From: Naegleria gruberi
Taxonomy: Eukaryota
Length of the DNA stretch: 64,000 nt
Assembly (NCBI GenBank): GCA_000004985.1
Contig: GG738911.1
Reading direction: 5' to 3' (one strand)
The notes under the pieces were generated by a model. The model searched no databases and was not told where the DNA came from. It saw only the letters and a program-made list of their open reading frames with translations. Shown in pieces: positions 12,683 through 64,000 of this stretch (within the stretch, counting starts at the first letter, position 1; every line of letters begins with the position of its first letter). The position numbers and the translations under genes are program-made.

Positions 12683-12754
12683 CTCCCGTGCCGGGAATTG
12701 AACCCGGATCTCCTGGGTGAGAGCCAGGTATCTTAGCCATTGGACCACACGGGA
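12683..12754 (-). tRNA. tRNA-Glu (anticodon CTC)
   Basis: Minus-strand read TCCCGTGTGGTCCAATGGCTAAGATACCTGGCTCTCACCCAGGAGATCCGGGTTCAATTCCCGGCACGGGAG. Anticodon stem CCTGG/CCAGG, loop CTCTCAC. T-arm CCGGG/TTCAATT/CCCGG. T-run downstream. The 88-aa ORF 12531..12797 is the tRNA translated and is not a gene. Confidence 0.85.
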
Positions 12755-19972: not shown

Positions 19973-22309
19973 ATGACAACAGACAGCCATCATCACTCGC
20001 TTCTCATACGACAATACATCTTTCTATCCTCCATTCTTCTTCTCCTTTTCGTCTTTTCACAAGTTTCGTCTCAAGATTATTACATTTCGAATACGGGATT
20101 TTTAGCTCCACAACCAGATGGAATAACATACAATGCAGGGAGTTTATATGTAGCCCTGAATGCTACCAATAGAATAGTCAAGTTTGACCTCACCTCGCAA
20201 CAAGTTTCGTATATTGCTGGAACTGGCCAGGAAGGTTTCGGTGGAGAAAACGAAATTGCGACCGAATCTCCTCTCCGAGCTCCATCAATTGCAAAACTGG
20301 CCTCTGATGGTACCATTTACATTACCGATTGTTCAAATGATAGAATTAGAAAGATTGTTGCTGGCAATGTTTCGACTCTAGTTTCGTCTATTTCATTGAG
20401 TCGACCTTTCGGATTAGATATTCATCCAATAAGTGGTGATTTGTACATTTCAGAATTAACTTCACGAATTGTCAAATTGACACCAAGTTCTGGAATAGCA
20501 GAAGCTTTGACTTTGAATGGAAATGGTTACAATGGAGATCAAATTCTAGCAATTTCTGCCAATGTCAACAATCCATTGCATATCCACGTGAAAAGTAATG
20601 GAGAATATTACTTTTTGGATTATGGAAATAATGCTATTCGAAAGGTGGATCTAAATGGATATATTTCTACAATAGTTTTGGGTGCATTTACTGCTATTGG
20701 TGGCGATCCTTTAATTAGTAATGAATTTTATTATGGAGGAGTTGGACAAATTTTCAAATATTCGAATGGATCATCTGTTCTAATTGCTGGTGGAGGAGTT
20801 TTGGATGTGGATGATGTTGATGCTAAAACTGTAATGTTTGGCCAAGTTTTTGGAATTACTTTGGGAGTGAGTGGTGAGGTTTACTTTTCAGATTATGGAA
20901 ATGGAAGAATTAGAAAGTTGGTGACATGTAGTGCAGGAACTTCCTATTCTGGCTATACTCATTCGTGTGTTTCTTGTTTTGGAGCAAGTGGTGCAGGGGC
21001 ATGTTCTGGAAATGGTGTTTGCATTAATAATGATGTTTGCGCATGTACTGTTTCAGGTTTTAGTGGAACTTATTGCAATGTTTCCGTTACTACTTGTTTT
21101 AACATTACAAGCGATCAGCCAACTACTTGTTCAGGTCATGGATCTTGCGTTTCTTTGAATAATTGTTCGTGTCTTTCTGGATATGATGCAATCGATTGCT
21201 CTGTCAACATTTCACCATTTGCAATGAGTACCAGTATTTCTTCAACCTCAGTTTCAGACTCTTCAGCAATTGGCATTCAAGCAATTTACTCTTCAGATGT
21301 TAATCCAACTTATTTCATTTGGGCTTGTACGAATTGTATCTATAAGGATTCGAATAATCAATTGCAATTTAGCAATATATCAAATACTGCCATTATTGAT
21401 GGTTCATTACTCAGTGTAGGAACTTATTCATTTACTGTTTATGGTATTTATGATAATGGACCTTCGTATCCAGCCAGAGTTTCGAATGTTGCCAATTTCC
21501 AAATCACAGTAATCAAATCAGTATTTTCTTCATCTTCGTTGGAGATTTATGGATTGCCATCGGTTGTGGTGGCTACAAACGCATCAAGCTCTCTCAACAT
21601 TATCATTCCACGACTTTCTCTCGATCAAACTCTCATTAATCAATTCTTGTCATGCAGTAACAGCTCAACAACATGTGGATTGTTAATTTCCTACAATGCT
21701 GCTCTGTCAATTACCAAGAACTCAATTACCTCCGTCATTTCAAGTTACAACGGTTACACCATGGCCAGTACAAATTTCATGAATAATACCATCACCTTTA
21801 CTCCATCTTTGAATTTTAAGGATAGTAATGCATATTCTGGCACTGAAATGATTCTCAATTTGGAGCTTACTGGTGCCACCAATTTGACCTTCTCTACTTC
21901 AGTACCAATTTATTCTTCAGCCACTCCACCACAAAGTACATCTGCAAATTCGACAGGTGGCGTGTTGGTTGATGTTTTGGGAATAGTGTCTCCATCATCA
22001 GGTAGAGCCCTCTCTGATCTTTTCACAATTACTTTTTCATCATGGACTGCAGCAGCTCAATTATTACCTTTGAAATATTCTGTTGGATTTGTAGATCCTG
22101 TTACTTCGAATGTGGTGAGAGTTACCGATTATACAGAGACCACTTCAGCTAATTTCATTCTTCCTTATCTTTCTTCGGTTTCTAATAGTAGAGGCCTTTT
22201 AGCTACTAGCTCGGTATCTGTAGTTGTTTTTGTGAATGATTCTATGGGAAATCAATATTCAAGTACTGTTCTCCCTATGCAGGAACAACGACAGAGTTGG
22301 TTTCTCTAA
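19973..22309 (+). CDS. adhesion-GPCR-like protein, ectodomain segment: signal peptide, NHL-type beta-propeller repeats, EGF-like repeats, S/T-rich region
   Basis: Signal peptide 'MTTDSHHHSLLIRQYIFLSSILLLLFVFSQVSSQ'. Repeats of the form 'YIAGTGQEGFGGE...DGTIYITDCSNDRIRKI'. EGF-like 'CSGNGVCINNDVCACTVSGFSGTYC', 'CSGHGSCVSLNNCSCLSGYDAIDC'. Confidence 0.75.
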   Translation: MTTDSHHHSLLIRQYIFLSSILLLLFVFSQVSSQDYYISNTGFLAPQPDGITYNAGSLYVALNATNRIVKFDLTSQQVSYIAGTGQEGFGGENEIATESPLRAPSIAKLASDGTIYITDCSNDRIRKIVAGNVSTLVSSISLSRPFGLDIHPISGDLYISELTSRIVKLTPSSGIAEALTLNGNGYNGDQILAISANVNNPLHIHVKSNGEYYFLDYGNNAIRKVDLNGYISTIVLGAFTAIGGDPLISNEFYYGGVGQIFKYSNGSSVLIAGGGVLDVDDVDAKTVMFGQVFGITLGVSGEVYFSDYGNGRIRKLVTCSAGTSYSGYTHSCVSCFGASGAGACSGNGVCINNDVCACTVSGFSGTYCNVSVTTCFNITSDQPTTCSGHGSCVSLNNCSCLSGYDAIDCSVNISPFAMSTSISSTSVSDSSAIGIQAIYSSDVNPTYFIWACTNCIYKDSNNQLQFSNISNTAIIDGSLLSVGTYSFTVYGIYDNGPSYPARVSNVANFQITVIKSVFSSSSLEIYGLPSVVVATNASSSLNIIIPRLSLDQTLINQFLSCSNSSTTCGLLISYNAALSITKNSITSVISSYNGYTMASTNFMNNTITFTPSLNFKDSNAYSGTEMILNLELTGATNLTFSTSVPIYSSATPPQSTSANSTGGVLVDVLGIVSPSSGRALSDLFTITFSSWTAAAQLLPLKYSVGFVDPVTSNVVRVTDYTETTSANFILPYLSSVSNSRGLLATSSVSVVVFVNDSMGNQYSSTVLPMQEQRQSWFL

Positions 22310-24927
22310 TCGGTTCATATGCCAGCTCTTCTCTTCTCACTGTTTTCAGTTATGACACCTCTCTTTCCGCTGCCAATTCTACTTCCTCAAGTGATGTTGC
22401 ATTGGAAATTGTGAAGAGTGTAGTAATTGATCCAAAGAATCCTACCACAGCTCTCACAGCCATTCAACAAGCTACCTCAAATCCAGAGGCTGTCGATTCT
22501 CGTGTCATTACTGAATTAACTAACAAGATTAATAATTTTGTAGCAACTCTCAATACTAATTACAAAGAAGAGAGAGCTCTTTATGGATTTGTCAAATCTA
22601 AATTGGCAACTGCTGACACAACAAGAACAACAGAAATTATTTCAAATGTTTTGGCAAGTGGAAGAGGAAATCAACAATCTAAGGGAATGGCAGATAATTT
22701 GACCAATTTATTAATTTTGGGAGAAATTGCCACATTATTAACTGGTCAGGATCAATCATCAGATGTTAACGAGTTGACCAAAGTTTCCTTCACATCTTCT
22801 CAATTGGATATTGCTGTTGCCGTCTTTACTTTGGATAAAGAAATGAATGGAACCAATCAAATGATTGGAGGTGATAATTCTGTAACCATGCCATTGTCAC
22901 AAATCACGAAACAATACAATGGATTCTCTAAAGAATCTGCCACTACCATGATCACCTATGATCAAAATATTTACTCTCAATCCAATGTTAGCGTCCTAAC
23001 TTCAACAGTGACTGATTTTAAATATTATCAAAATCAACAAGTTGTAACATTGGAGAATTTATCACAAAATATTGAACTCAAATTCAAAATTACAAATTCT
23101 ACAATTGTAATGGAAAAGATTATGGAATATATCAATAGTACAACTCAATTCAATTCAACCTCAAACAGCACCCAATCCAATTCTACTCTAGTGATGGCTT
23201 GCAAATATTGGGATGAATCTGCACTTGCTTGGAGCAGTAGAGGATGCTATCTGAAAGGATACAATTTGACAAGTCAAGAAATTCTCTGTTCTTGTTCTCA
23301 CACGACAATGTTCACAACCTTTGTGGAACAAAACACTTCGACAATTCCTGCTTCAGTGAAGGAAACAGTTGCTGCCTTTTATTATGGTCAAATTGCGTTG
23401 GGAATTTTCTATTTCTTGACTTCCATTGTCATTCTTTGTTTGTTGATTATTTTCAAGAATGAACAACCAATTTCATCTCGTTTGATTACTCCATACTTGG
23501 GAATGATTGCATTGATTGTGGAATCTCTTCTCGTTTACATTACACAAAGAGGTATTTTAGTGAGACAGTTGACTTCTACTTCAACTCAAATGTGGGAATC
23601 TGGAGATACTGATGCCAACACAATTGCAAACATTGTTCTCATATTTGCGAATACCATTAATTTGACAGCCATTTTATCTTATGTCATGCAAGTGTTGAGA
23701 TTCCAAGTTATGAAATACTTGTACGATTTATTGGCCTCCAGTAGAAATAATGAAAAGAAGAGCGATAGAATTTTGACAGTTTTGAGATTCTTGACATCTT
23801 CCTCATTGTTTTCCGCTATTTTAATTGTATTTGCAGTTATTAATGTATGCTATTGGGTCTTGTGGGTTGTTTTGAGAAGAACTGGAGTCCTTCCACCAGC
23901 AACATACACCTACATTGTTTCCATTTCGTATACGGTTATCATTTTCACATTTGGTGTCATTATTACATTGGTAGCAATCTTTGACTGGGTTGGATCTTCA
24001 GCCAAAGCAGGAATCAAAGCCAAGAGAAACTCCTCACTCACCAGAGAATCCAAATTCAAAATTGAAGAAGAAATTCAGAAGGAAATGGAAAAGTTTGATA
24101 TTTTCGAAAAGATTTACACAATTCTAGTAGGAATTGATGAACCATTGTATTTCAGAACTGAAATGATTATTTATGTGATTAGTTTCGTATTTTTAATCTT
24201 AAATCAAGTTATTGGATTGGTAGGAAATGAACTTAGATATGGAAATGAAGCCTCGTACAAGAAGGCGCTAATATTCGACTCCATTTCATTTATTTTCGAA
24301 GTTCTCTACGTGTTTACCTATTTATTTGTCTTTGGAGGATACTCTCTCATTCTATTACTCATTAGCAAGGTGAAAACATACAGAAATAACAAGGAAATGA
24401 AAAAATCTGCCAAGAAAAACATCAGCCAAGGTAGAGAAATCAACGAGGACATGTCACTTGTCTTTTCCAGCGATGAAGCCACTGAATTATTCGCCAGTTT
24501 CTGCGTTAAGGAATTCTCCTCTGAAAACTTTTATCTCTACTCAGATTTGAAAGAAAATACAGACATTATCGAAGGTAATAACATGCGAAAATTGCATCCA
24601 TATCTTCACTACATTCACGACACGTATGTGAAAGATGGCGCCAACTATCAAGTGAATATTCCAAACAAGTGCAGAACTAGTTTTATGAATCTGTTCAACA
24701 AGTATGCGAATGAGGTTTTGGAAATGTTGGATTCACAACTCAGTGAAAAGATCTCAACGGAAATAAGGAGTAGTTTTGAAATTCTAGTTCAGCAAATATT
24801 TGTCAATTTGGGAGATACCTTTTCAAGATTTGTATTTACTGTGGAATTTAAGGTTTTTAAGAAAGCATATGAACTTAGACAGGATATTTTGGAGGAATCT
24901 AATGTTGTTTTAATTGATGATGAGTAA
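22297..24927 (+). CDS. adhesion-GPCR-like protein, GAIN/GPS + 7TM + C-terminal RGS-domain segment, frame-shifted -1 from the previous ORF
   Basis: GPS motif 'CKYWDESALAWSSRGCYLKGYNLTSQEILCSCSHTTMFTTF'. Seven hydrophobic helices. RGS domain 'ELFASFCVKEFSSENFYLYSDLKE...QVNIPNKCRTSFMNLF...DTFSRFVFTVEFKVF'. This frame is open from 22240, so the break lies within 22240-22307. Confidence 0.75.
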   Translation: MVSLIGSYASSSLLTVFSYDTSLSAANSTSSSDVALEIVKSVVIDPKNPTTALTAIQQATSNPEAVDSRVITELTNKINNFVATLNTNYKEERALYGFVKSKLATADTTRTTEIISNVLASGRGNQQSKGMADNLTNLLILGEIATLLTGQDQSSDVNELTKVSFTSSQLDIAVAVFTLDKEMNGTNQMIGGDNSVTMPLSQITKQYNGFSKESATTMITYDQNIYSQSNVSVLTSTVTDFKYYQNQQVVTLENLSQNIELKFKITNSTIVMEKIMEYINSTTQFNSTSNSTQSNSTLVMACKYWDESALAWSSRGCYLKGYNLTSQEILCSCSHTTMFTTFVEQNTSTIPASVKETVAAFYYGQIALGIFYFLTSIVILCLLIIFKNEQPISSRLITPYLGMIALIVESLLVYITQRGILVRQLTSTSTQMWESGDTDANTIANIVLIFANTINLTAILSYVMQVLRFQVMKYLYDLLASSRNNEKKSDRILTVLRFLTSSSLFSAILIVFAVINVCYWVLWVVLRRTGVLPPATYTYIVSISYTVIIFTFGVIITLVAIFDWVGSSAKAGIKAKRNSSLTRESKFKIEEEIQKEMEKFDIFEKIYTILVGIDEPLYFRTEMIIYVISFVFLILNQVIGLVGNELRYGNEASYKKALIFDSISFIFEVLYVFTYLFVFGGYSLILLLISKVKTYRNNKEMKKSAKKNISQGREINEDMSLVFSSDEATELFASFCVKEFSSENFYLYSDLKENTDIIEGNNMRKLHPYLHYIHDTYVKDGANYQVNIPNKCRTSFMNLFNKYANEVLEMLDSQLSEKISTEIRSSFEILVQQIFVNLGDTFSRFVFTVEFKVFKKAYELRQDILEESNVVLIDDE

Positions 24928-30911: not shown

Positions 30912-30992
30912 GCAGGGGTTCCCGAGTGGTCAAAGGGGGTAGACTCAAGTTCTACTGCGCAAGCTTCGTGGGTTCAAATCCCACCTTCTGCA
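30912..30992 (+). tRNA. tRNA-Leu (anticodon CAA), type II with long variable arm
   Basis: GCAGGGGTTCCCGAGTGGTCAAAGGGGGTAGACTCAAGTTCTACTGCGCAAGCTTCGTGGGTTCAAATCCCACCTTCTGCA. Anticodon stem GTAGA/TCTAC, loop CTCAAGT. T-arm GTGGG/TTCAAAT/CCCAC. The decoded codon UUG matches the most used Leu codon in this window. Confidence 0.85.
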
Positions 30993-31338: not shown

Positions 31339-31411
31339 GGGGACTTGGCGCAGTCGGTAGCGCGTAGGTCTCATAATCCTAAGGTCGTGAGTTCGATCCT
31401 CACAGTCCCCA
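31339..31411 (+). tRNA. tRNA-Met elongator (anticodon CAT)
   Basis: GGGGACTTGGCGCAGTCGGTAGCGCGTAGGTCTCATAATCCTAAGGTCGTGAGTTCGATCCTCACAGTCCCCA. G1:C72 and a TTCGATC T-loop mark it as elongator, not initiator. T-run follows. Confidence 0.85.
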
Positions 31412-31558: not shown

Positions 31559-31810
31559 ATGCTGATGATGAATTCCTCATCACCCACTACTTCCTCACAA
31601 CTCGTAGTAGATGATCATGAGGGATCGACACCAAATTCCAGCACTGAAATTAACTTCCTCTCACCTACCACTCTCTCGGATGGTCCATTTACTTCATCTA
31701 CATTAACTTCCCCAACAAATTCTCTATCTATTCTTTCCAGTCAGCAACTAACTTCACAACAATTAATTGCCTCATCAAATTCTTCAACCTCTGATCAACA
31801 ACATATCTGA
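31559..31810 (+). CDS. family member 2, S/T-rich N-terminal segment (frame 1)
   Basis: ATG at 31559, 'MLMMNSSSPTTSSQLVVDDHEGSTPNSSTEINFLSPTTLSDGPFTSSTLTSPTN...'. Overlaps the next ORF by 44 nt in the +1 frame. Confidence 0.5.
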   Translation: MLMMNSSSPTTSSQLVVDDHEGSTPNSSTEINFLSPTTLSDGPFTSSTLTSPTNSLSILSSQQLTSQQLIASSNSSTSDQQHI

Positions 31811-32609
31811 GAGACTTCCCAGAACAAGTTTTATAGCTCAACGAAAGGAAGAATCAGAGAGACCATATGTTCTCTCTCCACACTCAACAGTGTTGATTCA
31901 TGAATATCCGAATGGTCCTATCAGGGAGAAATTAGTTGAAATGGTTTATTCTCCATTGGATACTCAACAATATTTGAGATTTGCTGGTGGGAGAGCAATT
32001 GAGAATATGAAGGGAACTCTACGACATTATGGATATTCGAGGGATATGCATTCGATTGTGGAAGATGTGGAAACTAATTTAGTATTTCCATTAAATAGAA
32101 TATTGGAGAGACATCAATTGATTAGTTCTCACTATGAAATGTATTTTAAAATGTTGCTAAATTCATTAATATTTATTGCAATCATTACTTTGGGATGTGG
32201 ATTGGTGTTCTTTCCATGTTTGTTACTAATTCAATATTTACATTGGAAACATGTGAAAAATTATGATAAGAATGTGAAAGAGAGAATCCACAGAATTTTA
32301 GAAAGAGAAAATAAGAAGTATCTTCCTTATGGTTTCGAATGGATTATCAAATATAGCATAATCAATTCTGACAAGAAGAGGACATGTGTAGGAATAAGGA
32401 CAGAATTGGCATGTGTCCAAGAGGTTGTTCTTTCGCTCATCCATGTTCGATCTAATCCCTTCTCTTCCAAAATAGGGTCACCTCCATTGTCAAGTTTCAG
32501 CTCTGTAATTTCATCTTCTTCAAGCATTGTGAAGGAAACACCATCGTCAATTAATGGAAATCCTGCTCTTTCAGAAGAAACCACTCCTTCAACAAGTAAT
32601 CAACTTTAA
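31767..32609 (+). CDS. family member 2, main segment (conserved motifs plus TM); no in-frame ATG before the conserved region
   Basis: Motifs 'EYPNGPIREKLVEMV', 'DVETNLVFPLNRILERH', TM 'YFKMLLNSLIFIAIITLGCGLVFFPCLLLIQYL', 'ILERENKKYLPYGFEWIIKY'. The first in-frame ATG lies downstream of 'YPNGPIRE', so the N-terminus must come from the 31559 frame. Confidence 0.6.
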   Translation: MPHQILQPLINNISERLPRTSFIAQRKEESERPYVLSPHSTVLIHEYPNGPIREKLVEMVYSPLDTQQYLRFAGGRAIENMKGTLRHYGYSRDMHSIVEDVETNLVFPLNRILERHQLISSHYEMYFKMLLNSLIFIAIITLGCGLVFFPCLLLIQYLHWKHVKNYDKNVKERIHRILERENKKYLPYGFEWIIKYSIINSDKKRTCVGIRTELACVQEVVLSLIHVRSNPFSSKIGSPPLSSFSSVISSSSSIVKETPSSINGNPALSEETTPSTSNQL

Positions 32610-32723: not shown

Positions 32724-33743
32724 ATGGTCGTATCCAAATATGGCAAATTACTTTCCATTCAAGATTGCAGCAATCCAACAAACGGCGCGCTCATTAATTA
32801 TCAAACAATAAAAAAAACCACCACAACCTCCATCCCAAGAGGATTGCATCCCTACTACTCCTCGTTATCCTCATATTGTTGGATTCTCTTCAACTTGCTA
32901 ACCTCCTCAACCACCCTTAATAACAGTAGAGCACAGAAACGTAAAATGCAGCAGAGGTCTTCATCAATATATTGTGTAAATTCAGTCTCAGTGATCTCTC
33001 CACAAACTACTAATCAGACAAATAATCAGAGTTTCAGATCTCCATCGCGGAATGTTTATAAAACTTCGTCATCTTCTTCTCCCTCAGTAAATCCACATCG
33101 ACACGAATCAACAATTCGAATACCAAAACCATCCTATGTGGTCGTTCAGCAACAGGATACGACCACCACAATTTTAACCGAGTCTCAATTTCCCAATGAT
33201 GGTCCTAAAGTGGAAGTTTTATTGCAAACGAAAATTGGAATGAAAGGTCCTAATTTTTCGATTAGTAATTCTGGGTCATTGATTGGGTGTTTGGAACAGT
33301 GTGGAATGTCAAATTCGATAGAAATGGTGACGGATATTGAGTCTTCTATTTTAAAACCTTTAAATTCTCTATTTTTGGAATACTATGCCAAATTTAGAAA
33401 ATATGAAATGCTGTATTTAATAATGATACTTGTAGCAGTAGGAATTATAATCATGACAATGGGATTAGGCCTTGCCTTTGCTTTAATAATATTCATCCCA
33501 AAAATTTTGAAAAATCGACAATTTGCCAATTTTGGAAAAATTAAAGAAAAAATTCGACTACTTTTAGAAAGAGAAAATCAAACCAAATATTTACCCTACC
33601 ACATGGAATGGGTTATTCAATACGGAATTTCTCCTCCAGAAAACAATCCAGACGATCAAACACTCGATGGAAGATGCATCCAAAATGCTACTTTACAATT
33701 ATTAAGAGTTAAAATCGAATCAGAATTGGAAGAAATTATTTAA
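32724..33743 (+). CDS. family member 3 (single TM, S/T-rich N-terminus)
   Basis: 339 aa. Motifs 'FPNDGPKVEVLL', 'DIESSILKPLNSLFLEYY', TM 'LYLIMILVAVGIIIMTMGLGLAFALIIFIP', 'LLERENQTKYLPYHMEWVIQY'. Confidence 0.6.
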   Translation: MVVSKYGKLLSIQDCSNPTNGALINYQTIKKTTTTSIPRGLHPYYSSLSSYCWILFNLLTSSTTLNNSRAQKRKMQQRSSSIYCVNSVSVISPQTTNQTNNQSFRSPSRNVYKTSSSSSPSVNPHRHESTIRIPKPSYVVVQQQDTTTTILTESQFPNDGPKVEVLLQTKIGMKGPNFSISNSGSLIGCLEQCGMSNSIEMVTDIESSILKPLNSLFLEYYAKFRKYEMLYLIMILVAVGIIIMTMGLGLAFALIIFIPKILKNRQFANFGKIKEKIRLLLERENQTKYLPYHMEWVIQYGISPPENNPDDQTLDGRCIQNATLQLLRVKIESELEEII

Positions 33744-33843: not shown

Positions 33844-35439
33844 ATGGAATCACCTCTGAAAAAGAAGAAACTCAATCACGCTGCGGAAGAAAAAGAGAAA
33901 AATATTGATTCCGATGATGATGATCAGAATAATGATGAAAATGTAAAAATAATATTATCTAATGATGATGGTTTAATGGAAAGTATTCTATTGAAGAAGA
34001 AACTTGGAGGAAACAAAATTAGAACTCTCAATACAAAGATCACACTCTCCGAGGTTTCTATTGATTGTCTTGCAAATGATGATGTGCAGATTCGAATATG
34101 TCACCAGAAAAAGTTATTGTTTCTTAGTTGTTGCAAAAATATTCACATTTACAATTATGAGGAAGATTTGAAACTTGTTAGGAAAATTAATGTGAAATTT
34201 GATAGTTTTGAAGTCGATAGTGTTGGTGAACACTTGTTTGTAATCTCAATTAGTGGCATGTCAAAATATAGACTTGATGACATGTCAGAATTGTGGACTT
34301 TTAGAGAAAACGTGTATTGTTTTACTATTAGTGAATCCAGAAATGAAATTTTCATTCCCAATAATTTGGAAGTTAACGTTTTGGATATGAATGATGGCTC
34401 AGTCAAGAGGAAAATTCCATTTCAATTAAGCCAAGGTTATTGCGCAGATATTGTCTATGATGAAGAGGAGGAAACCATTTATCTATCAGTTAATGTTGAT
34501 AGTTTTGAAGTTTATGACTTCAAATTATTAATAGTTTCAGAAAAAACTAGAACACAAACTGAACTTGTTTGTGATCAGAGATTTAGCCATCTCTTCTTCT
34601 ATGAAAGATATCTTGTATATATCACAGTAGTGGAAGTAGTCTATCTTTTTGAAAAGAAAACTAATAATTTATTATTAACATTTAAATTGGATAAAATTAG
34701 ATATTACAATTCCTATTTTGATAGATTAACCAATACTTTAATATATCTAAATAGACAGAAAATATGTTTTAAAAAGTTACACATTGAGGAAAATATTATT
34801 GAAACTCCACTCAACAAGGAGATTTGTCTTGCACTTGAGAAATTTGGAGGCAAATTACCATCTTTCATTCCAAAAGTTCAAGTTTTAAACGAATTTGTTA
34901 TTCCAGAATGTTTACAATATCTATGGAGAGTTGAGTTTGAAAATTCAAAGTTTTGGTATATTGAGAAAGAGATTGCAAAATATGTTTCTTTTCGAGATTG
35001 TAACTTTGGATACATTACTGAAAGATGGATGGGAAAAGATGATATTCTCTTAATTGGAGATTGTCCAACAAGTTCAGAATTGGAAAATAACAAGTTTGCC
35101 CTCTGTATCTTTGTAAAGAAAGAGGAAGTTTCCAAGGTATCAAATGGCGACTTTTCAATTTATTTGCGTTACTTTGATGAATCTTCTTATGATTATATTA
35201 TTCAGAGTTTCAAATTTTCAGAATTTGTTTCAAAATTGAGTGTTGCAGAACTTGTAAAATTAGAAGACTTTTCAGAATATTTGATTCATTTTGAAAAGAN
35301 NNNNNNNNNNNNNNNNNNNNNNNNNNNNNNNNNNNNNNNNNNNNNNNNNNNNNNNNNNNNNNNNNNNNTAAGAAAGATTAACAATATACTGTTACAGATG
35401 GTTTGGCATCAAATAAAGAAAAATTGGAATGAAAATTGA
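33844..35439 (+). CDS. clustered lineage-specific family, copy 1 (interrupted by the assembly gap)
   Basis: Starts 'MESPLKKKKLNH...DENVKII...LKKKLGGNKI...FEVDSVGEHLF...LDMNDGSVKRKI...IIETPLNKEICLALEKFGGKLPSFIPKVQ...VIPECLQYLWRVEFENSKFWYIEKEI...DFSIYLRY'. These motifs are shared with 46395..48092, 48179..49867 and 49911..51740. The N-run falls in the C-terminal part, so the C-terminus is unreliable. Confidence 0.6.
   Translation: MESPLKKKKLNHAAEEKEKNIDSDDDDQNNDENVKIILSNDDGLMESILLKKKLGGNKIRTLNTKITLSEVSIDCLANDDVQIRICHQKKLLFLSCCKNIHIYNYEEDLKLVRKINVKFDSFEVDSVGEHLFVISISGMSKYRLDDMSELWTFRENVYCFTISESRNEIFIPNNLEVNVLDMNDGSVKRKIPFQLSQGYCADIVYDEEEETIYLSVNVDSFEVYDFKLLIVSEKTRTQTELVCDQRFSHLFFYERYLVYITVVEVVYLFEKKTNNLLLTFKLDKIRYYNSYFDRLTNTLIYLNRQKICFKKLHIEENIIETPLNKEICLALEKFGGKLPSFIPKVQVLNEFVIPECLQYLWRVEFENSKFWYIEKEIAKYVSFRDCNFGYITERWMGKDDILLIGDCPTSSELENNKFALCIFVKKEEVSKVSNGDFSIYLRYFDESSYDYIIQSFKFSEFVSKLSVAELVKLEDFSEYLIHFEKXXXXXXXXXXXXXXXXXXXXXXXXRKINNILLQMVWHQIKKNWNEN
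35300..35368. other. assembly gap (69 N)
   Basis: A run of n characters. This is a draft scaffold join of unknown true length. Confidence 0.95.
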
Positions 35440-35957
35440 TTGTAAATTATTTATTGAAGATTATTGAAAGAACATGAGTGAATTTCAATTTTGAATTATA
35501 CATACGTTGAATTGAAAGAACTACGTTTATTGAAAGAGCAATGTGAAATCAATGTGAAATTAACGCTATGATAAATGGAGCTGAGAGTCATGTTACTAAC
35601 TTATGCTTCATAATTATGTGTTCTTGGAATAAACTATCATTGTTGCTCCACAAGGCTTTGCATAGGTGTCATATTTAGATATTACTGATGTCAAATTCAT
35701 AGAAACCTTGCTTTCAGTATCAGAAACGCTTTGCAAATTACTAGTTGGAGTTGACACATGAAACTAGAAACTGTAATATTAATGAGAAGATTTGTATGAA
35801 CTTGTTGGTAAATCGGTTGAAGAATAACGATCTTACAGTATTAAATATAAATAATACCCAGACAATTAATTGAAAAGGTAAGCTGTATTTAAGGCTTATT
35901 TATTTTTATTTCAAGAACCCCTTACTGACAGAGTTCAGTAAATTTTTATAAGTGTAA

Positions 35958-36010
35958 GGGACCATGGTCTAGTGGTATGATTCTCGCTTTGGGTGCGAGA
36001 GGCCGTGGGA
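35958..36010 (+). pseudogene. tRNA-Pro(TGG)-like 5' two-thirds fragment (acceptor 5' strand, D-arm, anticodon arm), lacking T-arm and 3' acceptor
   Basis: GGGACCATGGTCTAGTGGTATGATTCTCGCTTTGGGTGCGAGAGGCCGTGGG. Anticodon stem CTCGC/GCGAG, loop TTTGGGT. Nearly identical to eukaryotic tRNA-Pro up to the variable loop, then runs into a minus-strand Glu-like sequence. Confidence 0.5.
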
Positions 36011-36061
36011 ATCGATCTCCTGGGTGAGAGCCAGGTATCTTAGCCATTGGACCACACGGGT
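36011..36061 (-). pseudogene. tRNA-Glu(CTC)-like 5' fragment, truncated in the T-arm; copy of the intact gene at 12683..12754
   Basis: Minus-strand read ACCCGTGTGGTCCAATGGCTAAGATACCTGGCTCTCACCCAGGAGATCGATTCCCAC. About 46 nt identical to the intact tRNA-Glu, but the first base is T->A and the 5' half of the T-stem is deleted. Confidence 0.5.
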
Positions 36062-37400
36062 TAGACCAGTCTTTCACAAATATTTATTATTTTGGTTGTC
36101 CTTAAATAGATAAAAAGACTACAACACCACAGGTTCCCAAGTTGTCTCCAACCTCAGTACTGATGCTCGACGATGCTTAACTTCTCAAATCGGACGGGAT
36201 GAGGTGTATTCATCGTGATATGGCCGTAGCCATTCATTTAATGAAAATATGGACCATAAATCTAATATCAAACGTATTGCTAACTTTGGCAATAAAACAA
36301 CATAAGTAGTCAAAAATTCTATCATATCTTTTATACCATCTTAAAGATTTTCAACTATTCTAATTGCATGCACACGGCAATATTCATCATTCAGTGTTAC
36401 TCATTCAATAACAGTAAATAGCACCCAAATGGATACGAATCAAGAAAAACAATCCTACTGTAATGCATGTATTCCGTTACAATAGGTAAAATATCTAATA
36501 TTTCATTCTTGTCATTGTAAAATTAACTGTAATATGATTGTGATCTTGTAAGGTTGTTTTATGGGTAATAATCATGAAAAACTCCACATCTCCTATTATT
36601 GTAACCAACGTTTTATTCTCCCAGTTCCAAATCAAGAACTGTTTTATTAAGTCACTCACTTATTGACATTTAACATGTAGCAATTCAAAGAACACCAAAC
36701 TCAATTCCAATTCCTCTCCATTCCATTCCTTAATAACACACCTCAATAATTTCAATTTTTTATTGTAAATCTTTGTAAACTATTGAAAGATTCTCAAGCA
36801 AGGAATCTTTCCATACTGTAATTCAAAAGTAAAAACGCGAAACAGCAAAATTTCCAAAAGCAACAACGCGAATCACTATAAACAAGTTCACTCCCTTTGT
36901 TGAATGTGTTAAAATCGCCATATTTCAAAGACCCTGGACCAAAATCAAAGGATGGTTTGTTTGGCAATTCAACCAAACGCGAAAATCATTGCATGAAATG
37001 GAATCACCTTAATGGAGAGGAGTGTAGTGATTTACTGTTGAAATTTTTGGTAATTTTTCACATGAATTGAAGGGAATGAAAGGAGTGCAGTTGAAGAATT
37101 GAAGAAAAAGCCAACAATTTTCCAAGAAATGTCAATCAGTAAAAACAATCCTTACTTTTTCAGACACCTGTGCTACCAAATTTCATTTTCACTTTTCCTT
37201 TTCATCAAGTAATTGTGCTTTCCCGCTCCAGAAACCCAATCACACCTTCAAGCCAATCCATCCTGAAAATCTAAAGAGGAAACGGAAGAAGAACTCCGAT
37301 AAAAAAATGGGCGCTAAAAATAATGAGCCTTCACTTTGCTTGTCAAGACCTCATAAAAAACATCTTTTGATTTTTTTTAGCCTTTAAAAAAAATACAAAT

Positions 37401-37532
37401 ATGCAATTTAAATACGTTATTGCCGCCCTTATGGTGATGGTATGCCTCTTGGCTCCAACCATGATGGTTAAAGCTGAAAAGTCAGTTATGGGATGTGAAA
37501 TCTGTGAATGGTTGGTTGCTACCGCCGAAGGT
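37401..37532 (+). CDS. multi-saposin (SapB domain x5) amoebapore/saposin-like secreted protein, exon 1
   Basis: 'MQFKYVIAALMVMVCLLAPTMMVKA' is a signal peptide, then 'EKSVMGCEICEWLVATAEG'. Donor GGT|GTAGGT. Confidence 0.75.
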
Positions 37533-37649
37533 GTAGGTATTTTCTTGTAATTTTTATGATCTCTAATGATGATGCTGATGAAATATTGTTGTATTATTAA
37601 TATCTTGGTGATGATGATGATTTTATTATAATGCGCAAAATATCTTCAG

Positions 37650-37908
37650 TTGGTTAACAAGACCAAGCCACAAATCGAACAAGAATTGTTGCAAGTCTGC
37701 TCCAAGTTGGGTCCATATGAACAACTCTGTGACCAAATGGTCTTGATGGAATTGCCAGATATTATCGATGCTATTATTGCTAAGGAACCACCAGCAATTG
37801 TCTGTGCTCAAGTTAAGATCTGTGCCAACTCTTCTGCTCCAGCTATTGCTACTGCTCCAAAGGACTCTGGTATCTGTAACATGTGTCAATTGGTTGTTAC
37901 TCAAGTTG
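37650..37908 (+). CDS. saposin-like protein, exon 2 (intron 1 = 37533..37649, 117 nt)
   Basis: Acceptor cttcag|TTG. Encodes 'LVNKTKPQIEQELLQVCSKLGPYEQLCDQMVLMELPDIIDAIIAKEPPAIVCAQVKIC...GICNMCQLVVTQV'. Donor G|GTATGT, phase 1. Confidence 0.75.
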
Positions 37909-38072
37909 GTATGTTTTATAACCGTTAATTGTTGTTTTTGTGTATTAACTAATTAATTCTTTTAATATTTGATAATGATGAAAATAATTATCACATGATT
38001 ATTCATGATTATTATCCAAACACTTGATGCGCTATTTGACGTTTTAAAAATCGATATCATTCACAATAATAG

Positions 38073-38806
38073 AAAACTGGGTTGAAAGCAATGATACTAT
38101 CATGACTTTGGAAAAGAAGTTGGAACAAGTCTGTAATGTTATTCCAGGACAATACTCCACTCTCTGTACTTATGCTGTTGAACAATACTTGCCAACTTTC
38201 ATTCACCAAGTTGAACAACAATACTCTCCATTGGTCATTTGTCAAGATGTTAGTTTGTGCTCAAAGCAAGAAGCTCCAAAGGTTGTTGCTCCACAACCAG
38301 CTGCTGCTGAATTGTGCCCAATCTGTAAGGCTGCTGTCGGTTTCTTGAAGTCCAAGATCTCCACTGTTGATGTCCCAACCATCAAGAAGCAATTGGAATT
38401 CGCTTGTACTTTCTTCCAAGTTGAAGATTGTCAACAATTGGTTGATAAGGCTGCTGATATTGCTCAAGCCATCCAAACTGAAGATGCTAATACCATCTGT
38501 TCATCTGTTGTTGATGTCTGCCCAAAGGAACAAGTTACCTTGAAGGCTCAATGGAATCCATTCAAGAAGTTCCTCGAAGCTAAGAATGCCAAGTATTGTC
38601 CAACTTGTTTGGCCATTACCCAATATTTGGAAAATGCCATCACTTCTGATGTTGCTGTTGCTGAACTCATCAAGATTGCTGACCTCGGTTGTGCCAAGTT
38701 GGGTTCTTTGGAATCTCTCTGTACCAAGTTTGTTCCTCTTGCTGTTGACGAATTGAAGAAGTCATCCTCGAAAAGGTTACCCCACAAAAGGTCTGTTCCA
38801 CTTTGA
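38073..38806 (+). CDS. saposin-like protein, exon 3, first frame (intron 2 = 37909..38072, 164 nt)
   Basis: Acceptor aatag|AA gives 'QVENWVESNDTIMTLEKKLEQVCNVIPG...', with the 6-Cys SapB spacing repeated. The frame closes at 38806 inside the fourth SapB domain. Confidence 0.7.
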
Positions 38807-39156
38807 AGATGTGTGATGCTGCTGATAAGATGTCTCTTGCTGCTCCAGTTATTGCTGCTAAGGTTGAAGATTCCTCAATGTGTCTTGGTTGTGAATATGT
38901 TATTGGTGTTGCTGACAACTGGTTGATTGCTAACAATACTCAACAATCTGTTGAATCCACTTTGGATATGGTCTGTAACGACTTTGTTCCATCTGTCTAC
39001 AAGTCTCAATGTGTTGCTTTGGTTGCTCAATACACTCCACAACTCGTCCAACTCTTCGAAGCTAAGGTCTTTAACCCACAAACTGTCTGTAAGGCTATTG
39101 GTGTCTGTACCTCTGCTAAGAGACAAGCTATCAACAAGCAAATCCAAATGAACTAA
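38803..39156 (+). CDS. saposin-like protein, continuation after a frame break (last 1.5 SapB domains)
   Basis: 'MCDAADK...MCLGCEYVIGVADNWLIANNTQQSVESTLDMVCNDFVPSVYKSQCVALVAQYTPQLVQLFEAKVFNPQTVCKAIGVC'. The Cys spacing continues only if the frame changes between ~38750 and 38806. Confidence 0.7.
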   Translation: MKMCDAADKMSLAAPVIAAKVEDSSMCLGCEYVIGVADNWLIANNTQQSVESTLDMVCNDFVPSVYKSQCVALVAQYTPQLVQLFEAKVFNPQTVCKAIGVCTSAKRQAINKQIQMN

Positions 39157-39234
39157 ATGTTTAGTTTTTAATTTATATTTTCATTCTATTTCTTCTTGAA
39201 GTGCATTTTACAAAATGAACAAATTGAAAAAAAT

Positions 39235-40590
39235 ATGAACAAATCTCAAGATATTCTTCATAAACAACATTCTGTGGTGGCGAATTTATTACAGAAAGCC
39301 TATCACCAGAGTAATAACAGCATTGGAGGAGGAGAATCGGAGAAGAATTGTTTTAAAAAGGTTTTAATGAATCATCATGATGAGAATTTCAAAAAGACTT
39401 GTGGAAATGATCAACAAGCAATATTTGAATTTAATTATGAATTTTATTTGGAAAGTGATGGTGTAATTAATGCAGTCTATTTTATATGGATCAAGAGGAA
39501 AGAAAATGATTCTTCATCTTTTCAATTTGACGATTGTTCATTCATTTACAATGAAAAATGTCAAGATAAAAGTGAAATGGAGCTAGTTCTTAAGGTGAAC
39601 ACTTTACATGATTCGTGGGCAAGGTCCAAAACAATGAATGAAGTTTCCATCATGCAATTTTTAAAGAGTGAAAACTTTCCAGTTCCTCAAATATTTGATT
39701 ACGAGCTGTCGTGTGAAAATCTGCTTGGATTTGAATATATTCTCATGGAGAAGGTGAAGGGAGTTCCATTGAGACAGCTCTGCACTCGAATGGATGTTGA
39801 TGAGAGGAGTTTTTGGATTGATGAGATTGGAAAATACTTGAAGGAAATTTACAAAATGAATTTTGTGATTGATTCAGTTTCTTTTGATTTATCAAATGAT
39901 GAAATGGATAGGAGTGAATATATTGTAAAGGAAGTGGATAATACTGATGCAGGTAAATTGTGGCTTGGTGGAAGTTTTCACAGTTTACAAAGGAGAGGCG
40001 ATGCAATTCATGTTAAAATTGGCCCCTATGTTGATAGTAAGAGAGGTCCATTTGAATCCATTGTTGATTATTGGAAATCTTTGGTAGAGTTTAGATATCC
40101 AATATTTGAAACTCTGGAAGAGGGTCGATTTGCTAAATACATTCCACTCATGAAAAAGTATGTGGATAAATATTTTGGAAATGAGTCACCTCTCAGAGAG
40201 GAGTGTAAAATGGAGAATTGCAAGTTATTCCTCTGTCATGGTGATTTATCAACAAGTAATGTCATTGTCTGTGCAGAAACGAAAACAATCAAAGCAATTA
40301 TTGATTTTGAATGGGCCAAGCTCTCTGTCATTGAGGAAGACATGAGAAATATATTGGAAGATTGGTGTCTTGGATTGCACTCACTCGAAGGTCATTTAAA
40401 AACATTAATGAAAGATCAAACATCCTCATTCTACGAGAGGGTTCTCTTCCATTTCAAATTTATTGACTTGTTGAGTTGTGTGGAAAATTACAAACAATTT
40501 CACTCACCTGAACAACAAGAGAACGATGCAAAGGAATTTATTGAGATGATCATTGATGAATTGGATGAGGTATTGGAGCAAAGATTATAG
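39235..40590 (+). CDS. protein-kinase-like fold, aminoglycoside-phosphotransferase/choline-kinase (APH) family protein
   Basis: 'LFLCHGDLSTSNVIVCAETKTIKAIIDFEWA' matches the HGDxxxxN...DxE Brenner motifs of APH/ChoK-type kinases. Confidence 0.65.
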   Translation: MNKSQDILHKQHSVVANLLQKAYHQSNNSIGGGESEKNCFKKVLMNHHDENFKKTCGNDQQAIFEFNYEFYLESDGVINAVYFIWIKRKENDSSSFQFDDCSFIYNEKCQDKSEMELVLKVNTLHDSWARSKTMNEVSIMQFLKSENFPVPQIFDYELSCENLLGFEYILMEKVKGVPLRQLCTRMDVDERSFWIDEIGKYLKEIYKMNFVIDSVSFDLSNDEMDRSEYIVKEVDNTDAGKLWLGGSFHSLQRRGDAIHVKIGPYVDSKRGPFESIVDYWKSLVEFRYPIFETLEEGRFAKYIPLMKKYVDKYFGNESPLREECKMENCKLFLCHGDLSTSNVIVCAETKTIKAIIDFEWAKLSVIEEDMRNILEDWCLGLHSLEGHLKTLMKDQTSSFYERVLFHFKFIDLLSCVENYKQFHSPEQQENDAKEFIEMIIDELDEVLEQRL

Positions 40591-40598
40591 AAATTTAT

Positions 40599-43500
40599 TT
40601 ATCGGTGATTTTTTGGGGCAGTCTTAGTTGGTGATGTTACTTTTCCTAACTGTGTAATTGGTGAGAGTGTTTCTGATAAATCTTCACAACTGACTCGTTT
40701 GATTGGAGCTGATTTAATTCTAGAACGCTCTCTTGCAGGTGATTTTGATTTGGAATGGGAAGTATGAGGAATTGGAGGAATGATTTTCTTAGGAGATTCA
40801 GTCTTTTCAGGCTTTTGATAGGCAAATACTTGGCTGTGATCGAGCTTGGAAAGTTCCTTTTCCATGAGATGAATTTTCTCTTCTTCCTTCCTTGCTCTCA
40901 TGTCGTTCTTTTCTCTTTCTTTTTGGTAGAGAGTTTTCTTAGGTATTTCAATGACTGGGAATAAATCCATATCAGATTGATTTGATGAATTCGTTGCTGT
41001 TGTATTTGAAGAACCAGAGTCAATGAATTTTTGAGTGACAGATTTCCTCTTGGTCTTTTTCTTTTCCTTCTTTGGTGAATTGTCGATTTCTATAGGTTGT
41101 TGAACAGGTTGAGGAACCTCCTTCTTGTAGTCCTCTTCCAACTTCCTTCTCACCTTCTTTTGCTTGCTGCTCGCATCCTTTTTCTTTCTATCTGGACTCT
41201 CCAACTTTTGTGGATCTTGTGGGTCGTACTCAGTTTTCATAGAACTCAGTCCACTAAAACCATCTTCCTCAAAATCATCATCGAAATAGTTGGTTATTTC
41301 TTCATCCTCAAAATCAGAAGAATCACTATGATTACTGTTTTGTTGTTGCTTTTCTGTTACAGGTTTCAAATTGATTTCTCCATTACTGAAGGAACGTGAT
41401 TGCCACATTGAATTCTTTCTTAAAAAGATGGAAATATCCTTCTGACTATTGTATCCCTTCTTTGGTTTTACAACATCCAATGGTTTCTTTTCCTTCATTT
41501 CTTGAGAGAGTTCAGTATGAATTTTTGGCCCACCATGTGGAGGCTCATCAAAACTCTCATCATACTTATGTTCTGGTTCAGGAGGGAAAGGAGAAGCAGA
41601 ACCAGAGGATGGAGTGAATGCATTGATACAATCATCGTCAGATGGACTGCAAACAGCAGGTGAGCTCACTGAATCTGTTCCTTCATCATCACTCTCATCT
41701 GTTTGTAGAATCCATGGATCATTTAATAGATCATCTACTGTTGCTCTCAGATTGGGATCTCTGATAAAGCATTTGTACAAGAACTTTTTACACCCTTCAG
41801 AAACAAACTCTGGGAAGGATGGCATCTCTGTCGATGCAGCAATATGGAACATGACTGCAGCTGCTGTTGTAAATTCAGTGAATGGTGGTTTACCAGTATA
41901 CATTTCAACAACTGTACAACCAATACTCCAAATATCCGCAGATCTACCATGACCAGTTTGCATGATAACTTCTGGAGCCATAAAGTGAGGAGTTCCCAGT
42001 AAACTCTTAAATTCAGTTGAGAGAGTCATGATATCTTGAATTTTCCTTGAAGCACCAAAGTCTGCCAATTTAATGGCTCCTTCCACACTCACTAGAATGT
42101 TTGCACCTTTAATATCACGATGGACAATTCTATTCTCATGCAAATATTTCAAACCTTTAAGAATTTGAGTGGTGTAGTGACGAACAACATCCTCTGACAA
42201 TCTGCCATATCTTCTCAGTAAGGAGGAAACAGAACCACCTGGAACATATTCCAAGAAGATGTTAAGGGTTGTTCCTGTCACTTCTGCTCCATAATATTGT
42301 ACAATATTTTCATGACAAAGTTCCTTCATCAAGTTAATTTCTCTTTGGAGACTTTCTAATTTCAATTCCAAAATGTCCTCAGGTACACTGTCGAAAGTAC
42401 ATTCCTTGATTGCAAAGAATTTACCATCGTCCAAATTATATCCCAAAAATACTTTTCCACTTGCTCCTGAACCAATAAAATCTCCCTTCTTGTAATTCTT
42501 GATTGTTTTTTCCTTCTTTTTAGCTGACTTGGATCCCTTTCTTGTTGAGCTAGAAGCTGTGCTAACTTTTGAGGATGGCTCGCTAGAATTTGATCTTTTG
42601 GAGGAGGCACTACTAACTTGAGAAACGAGAGTAGAACTAGTATCATTATTGGTCGTTGTTGTTGCTGTGGTGACGTTTGTTGAGACTGTCGATACTGCAG
42701 AGGAACCTGTTGATTCTTCAACTGTATTTGTGGCTTGTTTGGGAATTCTTGGACTATTGTGAGATTGGCTCGGATGTTCTTCTTTTCTTTGGATTGGAGG
42801 TAAATGTTTGTTTTGAGAAACATTAACCTTAGGTGTTGTTTCCTTTCCATATTTTGCGTCATTAACTGGCGTGTCATTGACCATGATTGCTGTTGGTGTT
42901 GGTGCTCTGGATATTTTACTCGAGTGTGATGGTGTGTTGACTTTCTTATTCTTGAAATACAAGTGATGAGATGGAGAAGGTTGAGAACTGAATGTATGAA
43001 TTGACATTGGCTGTGGAGTATTCTGCTGACTATTTACATTGGCAGAACCCTTATCGGAAGAAGCTGATGGAAGAAAGAAGACGTTTGAAACTCCAGTCAC
43101 CAATGAATTGTTTAAACTACTATTATTTGATGACGAAGAAAAGTTTGAACTTTGAGAATTGATCGGTGATGGTACTCTAAATGATGCTTGCTGGTTTTTA
43201 GCTGGTGAAGTGTTGAAATCGGTATGTGGTCCAACAAAATTATTAGATTGAGTAAGATCACTCTTATTGATACTAAGATTTTGTGGCCTTTTCTTTGCTA
43301 GATTAGATTGCCTATTGCTGTTGTTTCCTACAGAAAGGTGGTTACTAGAGGAAGCAGCGGCTGGATTTTTGGTAGGTGTTGATGAGAGAGAGTTTTGAGA
43401 GATAACACTGAGGTGTTTGATTGGTGAAGAAGAACCTGTGGAGGTTGGTGTATCTCTTGACTGTGTTGAGTAGCAGTGAAGAGCAACATCAATACATTTG

Positions 43501-43640
43501 ATGGCAGAAGATTGATGAGTAAGGACATGATGAAAATGATGATAATGGTTAAATTTGTGTTCAACATTGTGATAATATTCAATACATTTAAATTTGTGCA
43601 AATATTCAGTGTTGAAGTGTTTGGGTATTAAATAGATCAT
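40599..43640 (-). CDS. STE11/MEKK-like serine/threonine protein kinase with long low-complexity N- and C-terminal extensions
   Basis: 1013 aa with ATG. Kinase core 'IGSGASGKVFLG...AIKE...HENIVQYYG...HRDIKGANILV...KLADFGAS...GTPHFMAPEV...DIWSIGCTVVEMYTGKPPF'. Confidence 0.85.
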   Translation of the reverse strand: MIYLIPKHFNTEYLHKFKCIEYYHNVEHKFNHYHHFHHVLTHQSSAIKCIDVALHCYSTQSRDTPTSTGSSSPIKHLSVISQNSLSSTPTKNPAAASSSNHLSVGNNSNRQSNLAKKRPQNLSINKSDLTQSNNFVGPHTDFNTSPAKNQQASFRVPSPINSQSSNFSSSSNNSSLNNSLVTGVSNVFFLPSASSDKGSANVNSQQNTPQPMSIHTFSSQPSPSHHLYFKNKKVNTPSHSSKISRAPTPTAIMVNDTPVNDAKYGKETTPKVNVSQNKHLPPIQRKEEHPSQSHNSPRIPKQATNTVEESTGSSAVSTVSTNVTTATTTTNNDTSSTLVSQVSSASSKRSNSSEPSSKVSTASSSTRKGSKSAKKKEKTIKNYKKGDFIGSGASGKVFLGYNLDDGKFFAIKECTFDSVPEDILELKLESLQREINLMKELCHENIVQYYGAEVTGTTLNIFLEYVPGGSVSSLLRRYGRLSEDVVRHYTTQILKGLKYLHENRIVHRDIKGANILVSVEGAIKLADFGASRKIQDIMTLSTEFKSLLGTPHFMAPEVIMQTGHGRSADIWSIGCTVVEMYTGKPPFTEFTTAAAVMFHIAASTEMPSFPEFVSEGCKKFLYKCFIRDPNLRATVDDLLNDPWILQTDESDDEGTDSVSSPAVCSPSDDDCINAFTPSSGSASPFPPEPEHKYDESFDEPPHGGPKIHTELSQEMKEKKPLDVVKPKKGYNSQKDISIFLRKNSMWQSRSFSNGEINLKPVTEKQQQNSNHSDSSDFEDEEITNYFDDDFEEDGFSGLSSMKTEYDPQDPQKLESPDRKKKDASSKQKKVRRKLEEDYKKEVPQPVQQPIEIDNSPKKEKKKTKRKSVTQKFIDSGSSNTTATNSSNQSDMDLFPVIEIPKKTLYQKEREKNDMRARKEEEKIHLMEKELSKLDHSQVFAYQKPEKTESPKKIIPPIPHTSHSKSKSPARERSRIKSAPIKRVSCEDLSETLSPITQLGKVTSPTKTAPKNHR

Positions 43641-43756
43641 TATTAAGGGTATTAAAAGTAACGAAAATTAATCAGTTAATTTGGTCCATTCATAATTTGA
43701 ATCATAATATTATCAATTATAATTAATATTATTATTAATGATGAATATAATAATAA

Positions 43757-44512
43757 TTAAATATTGTTATATTTCAAAAAACAAACCTGTTCCAAAGAAT
43801 CAATACTTTCCATAATTTCATCACCCTCATAATCAGTCATGGGTGAACGTCCTACTTTATGTGGTGTTAATCCCTGCTCATCAGGCGTTAAATAGCCATT
43901 TGCATTATAATTATCCAAATCTTCAATATCTTCCTCAATATCAGTCGTTCCGGTACAACTCGTATCGACAGAATACCTCATATCATCATTACTAAACGAA
44001 CCTTTCGACTTCATGCCGCCTCCTGGTATAATAACTTTCAGATTTTGTTGTTGTTGTTGTTGTTGAGGTGTTTGCAAATAGCTGGCGAGAGAGAGGCTTG
44101 ATGGAACTTGTTGCTGCTTAATAAAAACTCCCCCAAAGTTTTGATTATTTTTTAGGGTAGAAGAAAAATTTTGTTGATTTCCCGCCAAAGAAGATGATGA
44201 TGAAGAAGACTGTGAGGAACAACTGCTTGGAGTTTGTAGGTGGATATTCGGAGGAGGATTTGAGTAATAGTTATTATTGTTATTGCTGTTATTATTATAA
44301 TTAGAGTTATTGTTGCTGTTGTTATTGAGGGAAGCTAAGGAAACGAGACTTCCTAATTGTTGCTGTTGTTGAATGTAATAATTATTTGATGATGATGATG
44401 ATGAATTTATATTATTATTATTATTATTATTATTCATATTATTATTTGAAAATATTATTAGTGAGGTTGATAGTGGCTGGAGGAGTAATAAGCAATGGCA
44501 AATTATTGCCAT
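43757..44512 (-). CDS. N/Q/S-rich low-complexity protein with acidic C-terminus (segment 2)
   Basis: Poly-N tracts and a C-terminal 'DIEEDIEDLDNYNANGYLTPDEQGLTPHKVGRSPMTDYEGDEIMESIDSLEQ'. Confidence 0.45.
   Translation of the reverse strand: MAIICHCLLLLQPLSTSLIIFSNNNMNNNNNNNNINSSSSSSNNYYIQQQQQLGSLVSLASLNNNSNNNSNYNNNSNNNNNYYSNPPPNIHLQTPSSCSSQSSSSSSSLAGNQQNFSSTLKNNQNFGGVFIKQQQVPSSLSLASYLQTPQQQQQQQNLKVIIPGGGMKSKGSFSNDDMRYSVDTSCTGTTDIEEDIEDLDNYNANGYLTPDEQGLTPHKVGRSPMTDYEGDEIMESIDSLEQVCFLKYNNI
44411..44434. repeat. (ATT)8 microsatellite (AAT on coding strand; poly-Asn)
   Basis: Sequence attattattattattattattatt. Confidence 0.7.
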
Positions 44513-63877: not shown

Positions 63878-64000
63878 TTAAATACCATAGACAACGTTGG
63901 CCTTCTCAATGATTTGCATTTGAACATCTCTCACTGCCTTGAAATTAACATAATCTGGTGTGAAAACAAATCGAGAGAAGGTATCTCCCAAATTCATAAC
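63878..64000 (-). CDS. RGS-domain protein, C-terminal end only (gene continues beyond window)
   Basis: Minus-strand translation '...MNLGDTFSRFVFTPDYVNFKAVRDVQMQIIEKANVVYGI*'. 'NLGDTFSRFVFT' is nearly identical to the RGS C-terminus 'NLGDTFSRFVFTVEF' of 22297..24927. Confidence 0.5.
   Translation of the reverse strand, partial: VMNLGDTFSRFVFTPDYVNFKAVRDVQMQIIEKANVVYGI

Follow-up and report, generated by a model that had tools for sequence, protein, structure and literature searches.

The locus at 35958–36061 of this Naegleria gruberi DNA raises the question of what two tRNA-like sequences are that run into each other from opposite strands and stop before either is finished. The analysis covered the whole stretch of 64,000 nucleotides, referred to as the window. 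A first-pass annotation, made from the letters alone, had described the locus as two convergent 5' tRNA parts, Pro(UGG)-like on the plus strand and Glu(CUC)-like on the minus strand. This description was borne out by truncated matches to the Rfam tRNA model and by identities to intact genes, far beyond chance expectation. The placement of the two parts was right, but their exact boundaries had to be moved: the locus consists of Pro positions 1–52 (35958–36009, plus strand), a filler of the four bases AATC that belong to neither gene (36010–36013), and the reverse complement of Glu positions 1–48 (36061–36014, minus strand). The locus is likely to be the scar of one recent break-and-rejoin event that left two dead, truncated tRNA genes behind.

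The Pro part, GGGACCATGGTCTAGTGGTATGATTCTCGCTTTGGGTGCGAGAGGCCGTGGG (35958–36009 (+), 52 nt), was assigned to positions 1–52 of a tRNA-Pro(UGG) gene from its sequence and from a truncated Rfam tRNA match. It contains the acceptor 5' strand, the D arm, the anticodon arm (TGG), the variable loop and the 5' T-stem strand GTGGG, with an A box reading TGGTCTAGTGG. The T loop, the 3' T stem, the 3' acceptor strand and a terminator are lacking. Searched alone with Infernal, it was aligned as a 3'-truncated match to positions 1–51 of the 71 positions of the Rfam tRNA model (27.3 bits, E = 2e-4). Positions 8–52 were identical (45/45) to five intact tRNA-Pro(TGG) genes on metagenome contigs and diverged thereafter, 35 of these 45 identical positions being fixed by construction of the search pattern (a 35-nt stretch used for the metagenome scan). 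All five intact genes (5/5) continue after the shared 45 nt with TTCGATTCCC(A/G)C and the 3' acceptor strand. In the window, AATCGATCTCCTGGG follows the Pro part instead of this canonical continuation, so that behind GTGGG the plus strand reads AATCGATCTCC where the intact Pro genes read TTCGATTCCCAC. The five reference genes lie in tRNA clusters. Two metagenome contigs are mixed-strand and extremely densely packed, with 19 tRNA genes in 2.7 kb (L001, 1–2756; JGI Ga0308006_10011655) and 14 tRNA genes in 2.1 kb (L005, 1–2074; JGI Ga0308005_10015313), at a GC content of 37–38%. Three others (L002–L004) carry tighter, same-strand tRNA clusters with approximately 51% GC.

The Glu part (36014–36061 (-)) was identified by its identity to an intact copy and by a truncated Rfam match, and comprises gene positions 1–48. 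As reference served the intact tRNA-Glu(CUC) gene at 12683–12754 (-), which was recognised by ARAGORN, by the Rfam tRNA model (61.3 bits) and from its sequence. Positions 36014–36060 matched 12707–12753, i.e. positions 2–48 of the intact gene, in 47 of 47 nucleotides (blastn, E = 1.6e-18). Position 1 is A in the Glu part and T in the intact copy, as had been noticed before. After position 48 the similarity breaks off abruptly. The acceptor 5' strand, the D arm, the anticodon arm (CTC), the variable loop and the first T-stem base are present and the remainder is absent. The A box reads TGGTCCAATGG. Taken alone, the part gave a 3'-truncated match to positions 1–46 of the 71 model positions (22.6 bits, E = 0.005). 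The first-pass annotation had read it as a duplicate of the first ~46 nt of the gene at 12683–12754 with a T-stem deletion. The identity itself held, but duplication of the locus did not: the 5' flanks of the Glu part and of the 12.7-kb gene are unrelated and identity ends exactly at the gene boundary, which rules out a segmental duplicate. The Glu part belongs to the Glu(CUC) gene family as a further copy, and with flanks this different each fragment looks like a resident gene copy that was cut in place. A simple truncation after position 48 was also preferred to an internal T-stem deletion as the more economical reading, because the Pro 5' T stem, together with an inverted copy of the Pro T loop, fully accounts for the later bases.

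Neither part is completed into a tRNA at the locus. ARAGORN called five tRNA genes in the 64-kb window, none of them at the Pro/Glu locus under either default or intron-tolerant settings; calls appeared there only in metazoan-mitochondrial mode or at an 80% threshold. Full-length Rfam tRNA matches reached 22.5 bits on the plus strand and 21.3 bits on the minus strand, compared with a gathering score of 29. When full-length Infernal alignments were forced, each contained two mismatched acceptor pairs, and the T region either took up a 35-nt insert or collapsed. The covariance-model check on both strands thus returned no complete canonical tRNA. A complete tRNA that contains an intron, or whose T loop carries a long insert, was ruled out by the intron settings of ARAGORN and the sub-threshold Rfam scores. 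The complementary 3' acceptor strands, TGGTCCC for Pro and CACGGGT for Glu, were absent after either part, and the T-arm/B-box pattern GGTTCRANTCC was not matched within the locus with up to one mismatch. A canonical T arm, with a 5-bp stem and the TTCRANT loop that is also the B-box promoter element, is present on neither part; the minus strand has only the B-box-like GATCGATTCC, which lacks a stem partner. The first reading that neither part has a complete T arm or a 3' acceptor strand was confirmed on the sequence and on the Rfam alignments. Missing at the locus are thus both 3' acceptor strands, intact T arms and terminators, while the D and anticodon stems are intact in both parts (model positions 1–51 in Pro and 1–46 in Glu). 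Both parts show the high partial-length identity to a functional gene and the abrupt end by which truncated pseudogenes are recognised. Neither part is predicted to adopt the cloverleaf fold or to be charged with an amino acid, and with T arm, acceptor strand and terminator all gone, function was presumably lost. For annotation this calls for caution: neither fragment should be labelled as a tRNA gene.

The junction carries a trace of how the two parts may have been joined. The 5' T-stem strand GTGGG, the filler AATC and the following GA together form GTGGGAATCGA. Direct reading of the letters shows this to match, base for base, the reverse complement of TCGATTCCCAC, which makes up the T loop and 3' T stem of a canonical Pro gene. 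Since intact Pro genes continue with TTCGATTCCC(A/G)C, GTGGGAATCGA is the inverted complement of the very loop and stem that are missing. By arithmetic, a random 4-nt filler would prolong the inverted match to the Pro T arm with odds of approximately 1/256. This suggests that the filler may have been made by hairpin-templated repair. The palindrome ATCGAT, which the first-pass annotation had placed at the meeting point, does straddle the join. A chimera formed by ligation at a restriction site (GATC or ATCGAT) was rejected by reasoning, as GATC does not occur natively where the Pro side was broken. Short fillers that are inverted-complementary to the sequence next to the break are known as templated insertions at repair junctions, in polymerase-theta-type end joining and in quasi-palindrome template switching. 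The filler at the T-arm hairpin resembles them in this respect; it differs in that there is one junction only and the match covers 4–6 bases.

The fused element occurs as a single copy in the window. The junction had no match in metagenome, viral or prokaryotic genome contigs, and the Naegleria-type Glu 5' half had none in genome and viral contigs. SINE-type dispersal, with a tRNA-related head and a common body repeated at many sites, was assessed within the window and these collections.

The course of events that would best account for this anatomy is a single deletion. A Pro gene on the plus strand and a Glu gene on the minus strand would have stood side by side, pointing towards each other, next to a 5S rRNA gene in an intergenic region of N. 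gruberi. One deletion, with both breakpoints inside the T-arm regions of the Pro(UGG) and Glu(CUC) genes, would have taken away ~20 nt from the 3' end of Pro and ~24 nt from that of Glu, along with the two terminators and the spacer. The free ends would then have been rejoined with the four extra bases AATC, which together with their flanks copy the Pro T loop in inverted form. Such a filler pattern could have arisen by fold-back synthesis on the T-arm hairpin, either during end joining or by template switching in replication. The former neighbourhood of the two genes and this route of repair are what we infer from the remaining pieces. Because no substitution separates the parts from the functional copies except at Glu position 1, either the event was recent or the remnants were homogenised by gene conversion. 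By itself, an absence of substitutions over approximately 100 nt could reflect a young event, gene conversion or selection.

The deletion reading fits the setting of this genome. N. gruberi is unusually rich in tRNA loci, with 924 tDNAs (PMC2888827). With this number, and with five intact tRNA genes and a 5S gene within 64 kb, adjacent tRNA genes and relics are to be expected. A search of the literature for Naegleria tRNA gene fusions or 5S linkage returned nothing, and the tDNA count was the sole relevant fact obtained. Truncated tRNA pseudogenes and tDNA relics (PMC2888827) resemble the locus in being nearly identical to a functional gene over part of their length with essential pieces gone, and in lying among functional tRNA genes of a tDNA-rich genome. 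The locus differs from them in that two different isoacceptor genes were truncated at equivalent points and united by one tail-to-tail join. Most described tRNA pseudogenes are single copies, either point-mutated or SINE-derived. Tail-to-tail tRNA pairs with the same convergent orientation are common among clustered tDNAs; in normal pairs both genes are complete with terminators between them, whereas here the 3' thirds and the spacer are gone. Pairs of this kind have been raised as a possible source of small RNAs (PMC2888827).

Genes that encode only part of a tRNA at one site share this feature with the locus. Split tRNA genes are known from Nanoarchaeum equitans and permuted tRNA genes from Cyanidioschyzon merolae. 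In those systems the genes are split at or near the anticodon loop, matching 3' halves and complementary leader or processing signals exist, and a whole tRNA results. At the present locus, in contrast, the cut lies in the T arm, two tRNAs on opposite strands are affected, and no 3' partners are found within the window. The feature is best explained as a new example of a tRNA gene relic, a known kind of thing, in which the hairpin-templated junction is an only mildly notable detail. The favoured reading of the evidence is the rearrangement relic that had been among the first proposals. If right, it provides a clean, datable case of tRNA gene death from a genome whose tRNA gene complement is unusually large, and it would hint at the T-arm hairpin as a favoured breakpoint and repair template. 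It raises no new question unless the remnant turns out to be transcribed or conserved.

The same scar could have been produced by an inversion, or by another two-break rearrangement, between distant co-oriented tRNA genes. Such an event would leave the 5' parts of Pro and Glu converging at one end and their 3' parts diverging at the other, and two converging 5' parts are an exact geometric fit to this prediction. The conserved T-loop sequence would offer microhomology between any pair of tRNA genes, and the positions of tRNA genes turn over fast in eukaryotes (PMC2888827). Two joins are required, however, where a deletion needs one. The predicted reciprocal junction, at which a TGGGACCAGTGGGAATCGAA-like sequence would run into the 3' end of a Glu gene, is not present in the 64-kb window, nor is an orphan 3' tRNA half or any extra B-box-like or T-arm motif; this leaves room for an inversion larger than the window. 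An inversion origin is accordingly rated as unlikely. A junction made by a chimeric clone or by a wrong overlap near a contig end is rated lower still, as improbable. The locus is known from one draft assembly, a gap of 69 N (35300–35368, found by scanning for N runs and located inside the upstream protein-coding ORF) lies 590 nt to the left of the Pro part, and none of the contig collections searched contained an independent sequence spanning the junction. One metagenome contig came close (L006; ENA ERZ929261, run ERR1078381, contig k127_545436, 7520 bp). It was reached via an APH-like neighbour gene and corresponds to window positions 36804–44395 with 98.8% identity over 6.9 kb, but its start at 36804 leaves 570 nt to the 5S gene uncovered, and the junction lies outside it. 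No further contig across the junction was retrieved when 35560–36810 was used as a concatenated six-frame query. The existence of L006 points to a second N. gruberi-like strain in public data. Against an artefact, the junction is internal to a gap-free contig that extends from 35369 at least to the window end, more than 28 kb. With four non-shared bases at the join, any overlap between the parts is too short to have misled an assembler, and a filler templated from a local hairpin speaks for biological repair. The N. gruberi genome has a size of approximately 41 Mb. Taking the 924 tDNAs (PMC2888827) as about 0.16% of the genome and two independent hits, the arithmetic chance of a random chimera falling into two tRNA genes at equivalent positions is ~3e-6.

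A function of the fused locus as a transcribed unit was weighed against the same observations and appears very improbable. Each part carries an A box and both are free of substitutions. On the minus strand the fusion created GATCGATTCC, which departs from the B-box core consensus of established Pol III promoters only at position 54. N. gruberi also encodes RNAi components. In its most concrete form, rated as the least probable of all, this would be a live Pol III unit in which the Glu A box and the chimeric GATCGATTCC drive a minus-strand RNA of ~190 nt, starting with the Glu 5' part, continuing into antisense tRNA-Pro, so that its 3' portion is perfectly antisense to the first 52 nt of Pro, and ending at TTTT at 35876–35873. 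Together with a plus-strand transcript, such an RNA could form double-stranded RNA, give rise to tRNA-half-like small RNAs or act as an antisense regulator of tRNA-Pro, or the locus could be a TFIIIC-bound chromatin boundary. If true, the locus would be an antisense or double-stranded source of tRNA-derived small RNAs in Naegleria, or a TFIIIC-bound boundary beside the 5S gene. The plus strand, however, has no B box, and no terminator lies near either part, the first downstream T4 on the minus strand being the one at 35876–35873. The predicted folds were ordinary (z-scores of -2.0, -1.35 and -1.74); a special RNA structure at the locus was ruled out by these values. A 12-bp pairing between the D arms is expected for any two convergent tRNA genes. 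The window contains no further copy of the locus, and the collections searched returned nothing that matches it.

The relic reading also agrees with what surrounds the two fragments. They lie in an intergenic region of approximately 2 kb, between a gene ending at 35439 on the left and a saposin-like gene starting at 37402 on the right. An intact 5S rRNA gene is located at 36116–36231 (-) (Rfam RF00001, 92.4 bits, E 1e-18, model positions 1–120 of 120), 54 nt upstream of the Glu part and on the same strand, with its own TTTTT terminator directly after the gene. This gene is probably a neighbour left from a former small Pol III gene cluster. Dicistronic tRNA-5S rRNA genes are known from Yarrowia lipolytica. 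Like these, the locus places tRNA-type sequence beside a dispersed 5S gene on the same strand. In Yarrowia, however, the tRNA is complete, precedes the 5S sequence and is co-transcribed with it, whereas here the 5S gene comes first, ends in a T5 of its own and is followed by a truncated tRNA part.

A third broken gene piece was found to the left of the Pro part, at a distance of 135 nt. It is a decayed, orphaned fragment of a large receptor-like gene at 35577–35823 (-) (approximately 250 nt, ~83 codons), detected with a six-frame query (tblastn, E 1.6e-19). The fragment shows 77% amino-acid identity to residues 697–766 of the N. gruberi protein P0006 and contains three in-frame stops and one frameshift. 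The parent gene of P0006 lies just past the right end of the window, with its last 40 residues encoded at 64000–63881 (-). With the two tRNA parts, this makes three truncated gene pieces in the intergenic region, beside one intact Pol III gene. With a third piece broken by stops and a frameshift, the region appears to have gathered rearrangement debris. Neither the intact 5S gene 54 nt away nor the decayed fragment 135 nt away had been mentioned in the first-pass annotation. The annotation had also pointed to dictyostelids, where tRNA genes are landing sites of retroelements. In the TRE/DGLT type of dictyostelids the element is placed at a fixed distance from the tRNA gene. The retroelement argument had to be dropped, as the host is Naegleria gruberi, a heterolobosean, and no retroelement lies nearby: Pfam searches of the neighbouring ORFs returned no reverse transcriptase or integrase, and the six-frame query of 35560–36810 detected the receptor-like fragment and no retroelement-like coding sequence. 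A paralogue of P0006 with 42% identity was found at ~20927–24909 (+), inside ORFs at 19973–24927.

The ORF just upstream of the intergenic region was 97% identical to an NCBI predicted protein of N. gruberi (261-kb scaffold). The gene at 33844–35439 (+) encodes a Naegleria-specific protein, and its coding sequence is broken by the gap at 35300–35368. It has two paralogues in N. gruberi (P0002 with 45% and P0003 with 40% identity), and a collection of 5.8 billion proteins yielded nothing else. To the right, 37402–39156 (+) is a multi-exon gene with several SapB_1/SapB_2 saposin-like domains and a signal-peptide-like start; its domain layout presumably resembles that of the multi-peptide naegleriapore precursors of N. 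fowleri. Two of the intact tRNA genes of the window, tRNA-Leu(CAA) at 30912–30992 (+) and tRNA-Met(CAT) at 31339–31411 (+), stand in tandem 347 nt apart, so intact tRNA genes can lie close together in this part of the genome. The ORFs at 31767–32609 (+) and 32724–33743 (+) are tandem paralogues without a Pfam match (28% identity over 219 aa, E 4e-22) that have in common a transmembrane stretch and the motif ERENxKYLPY.
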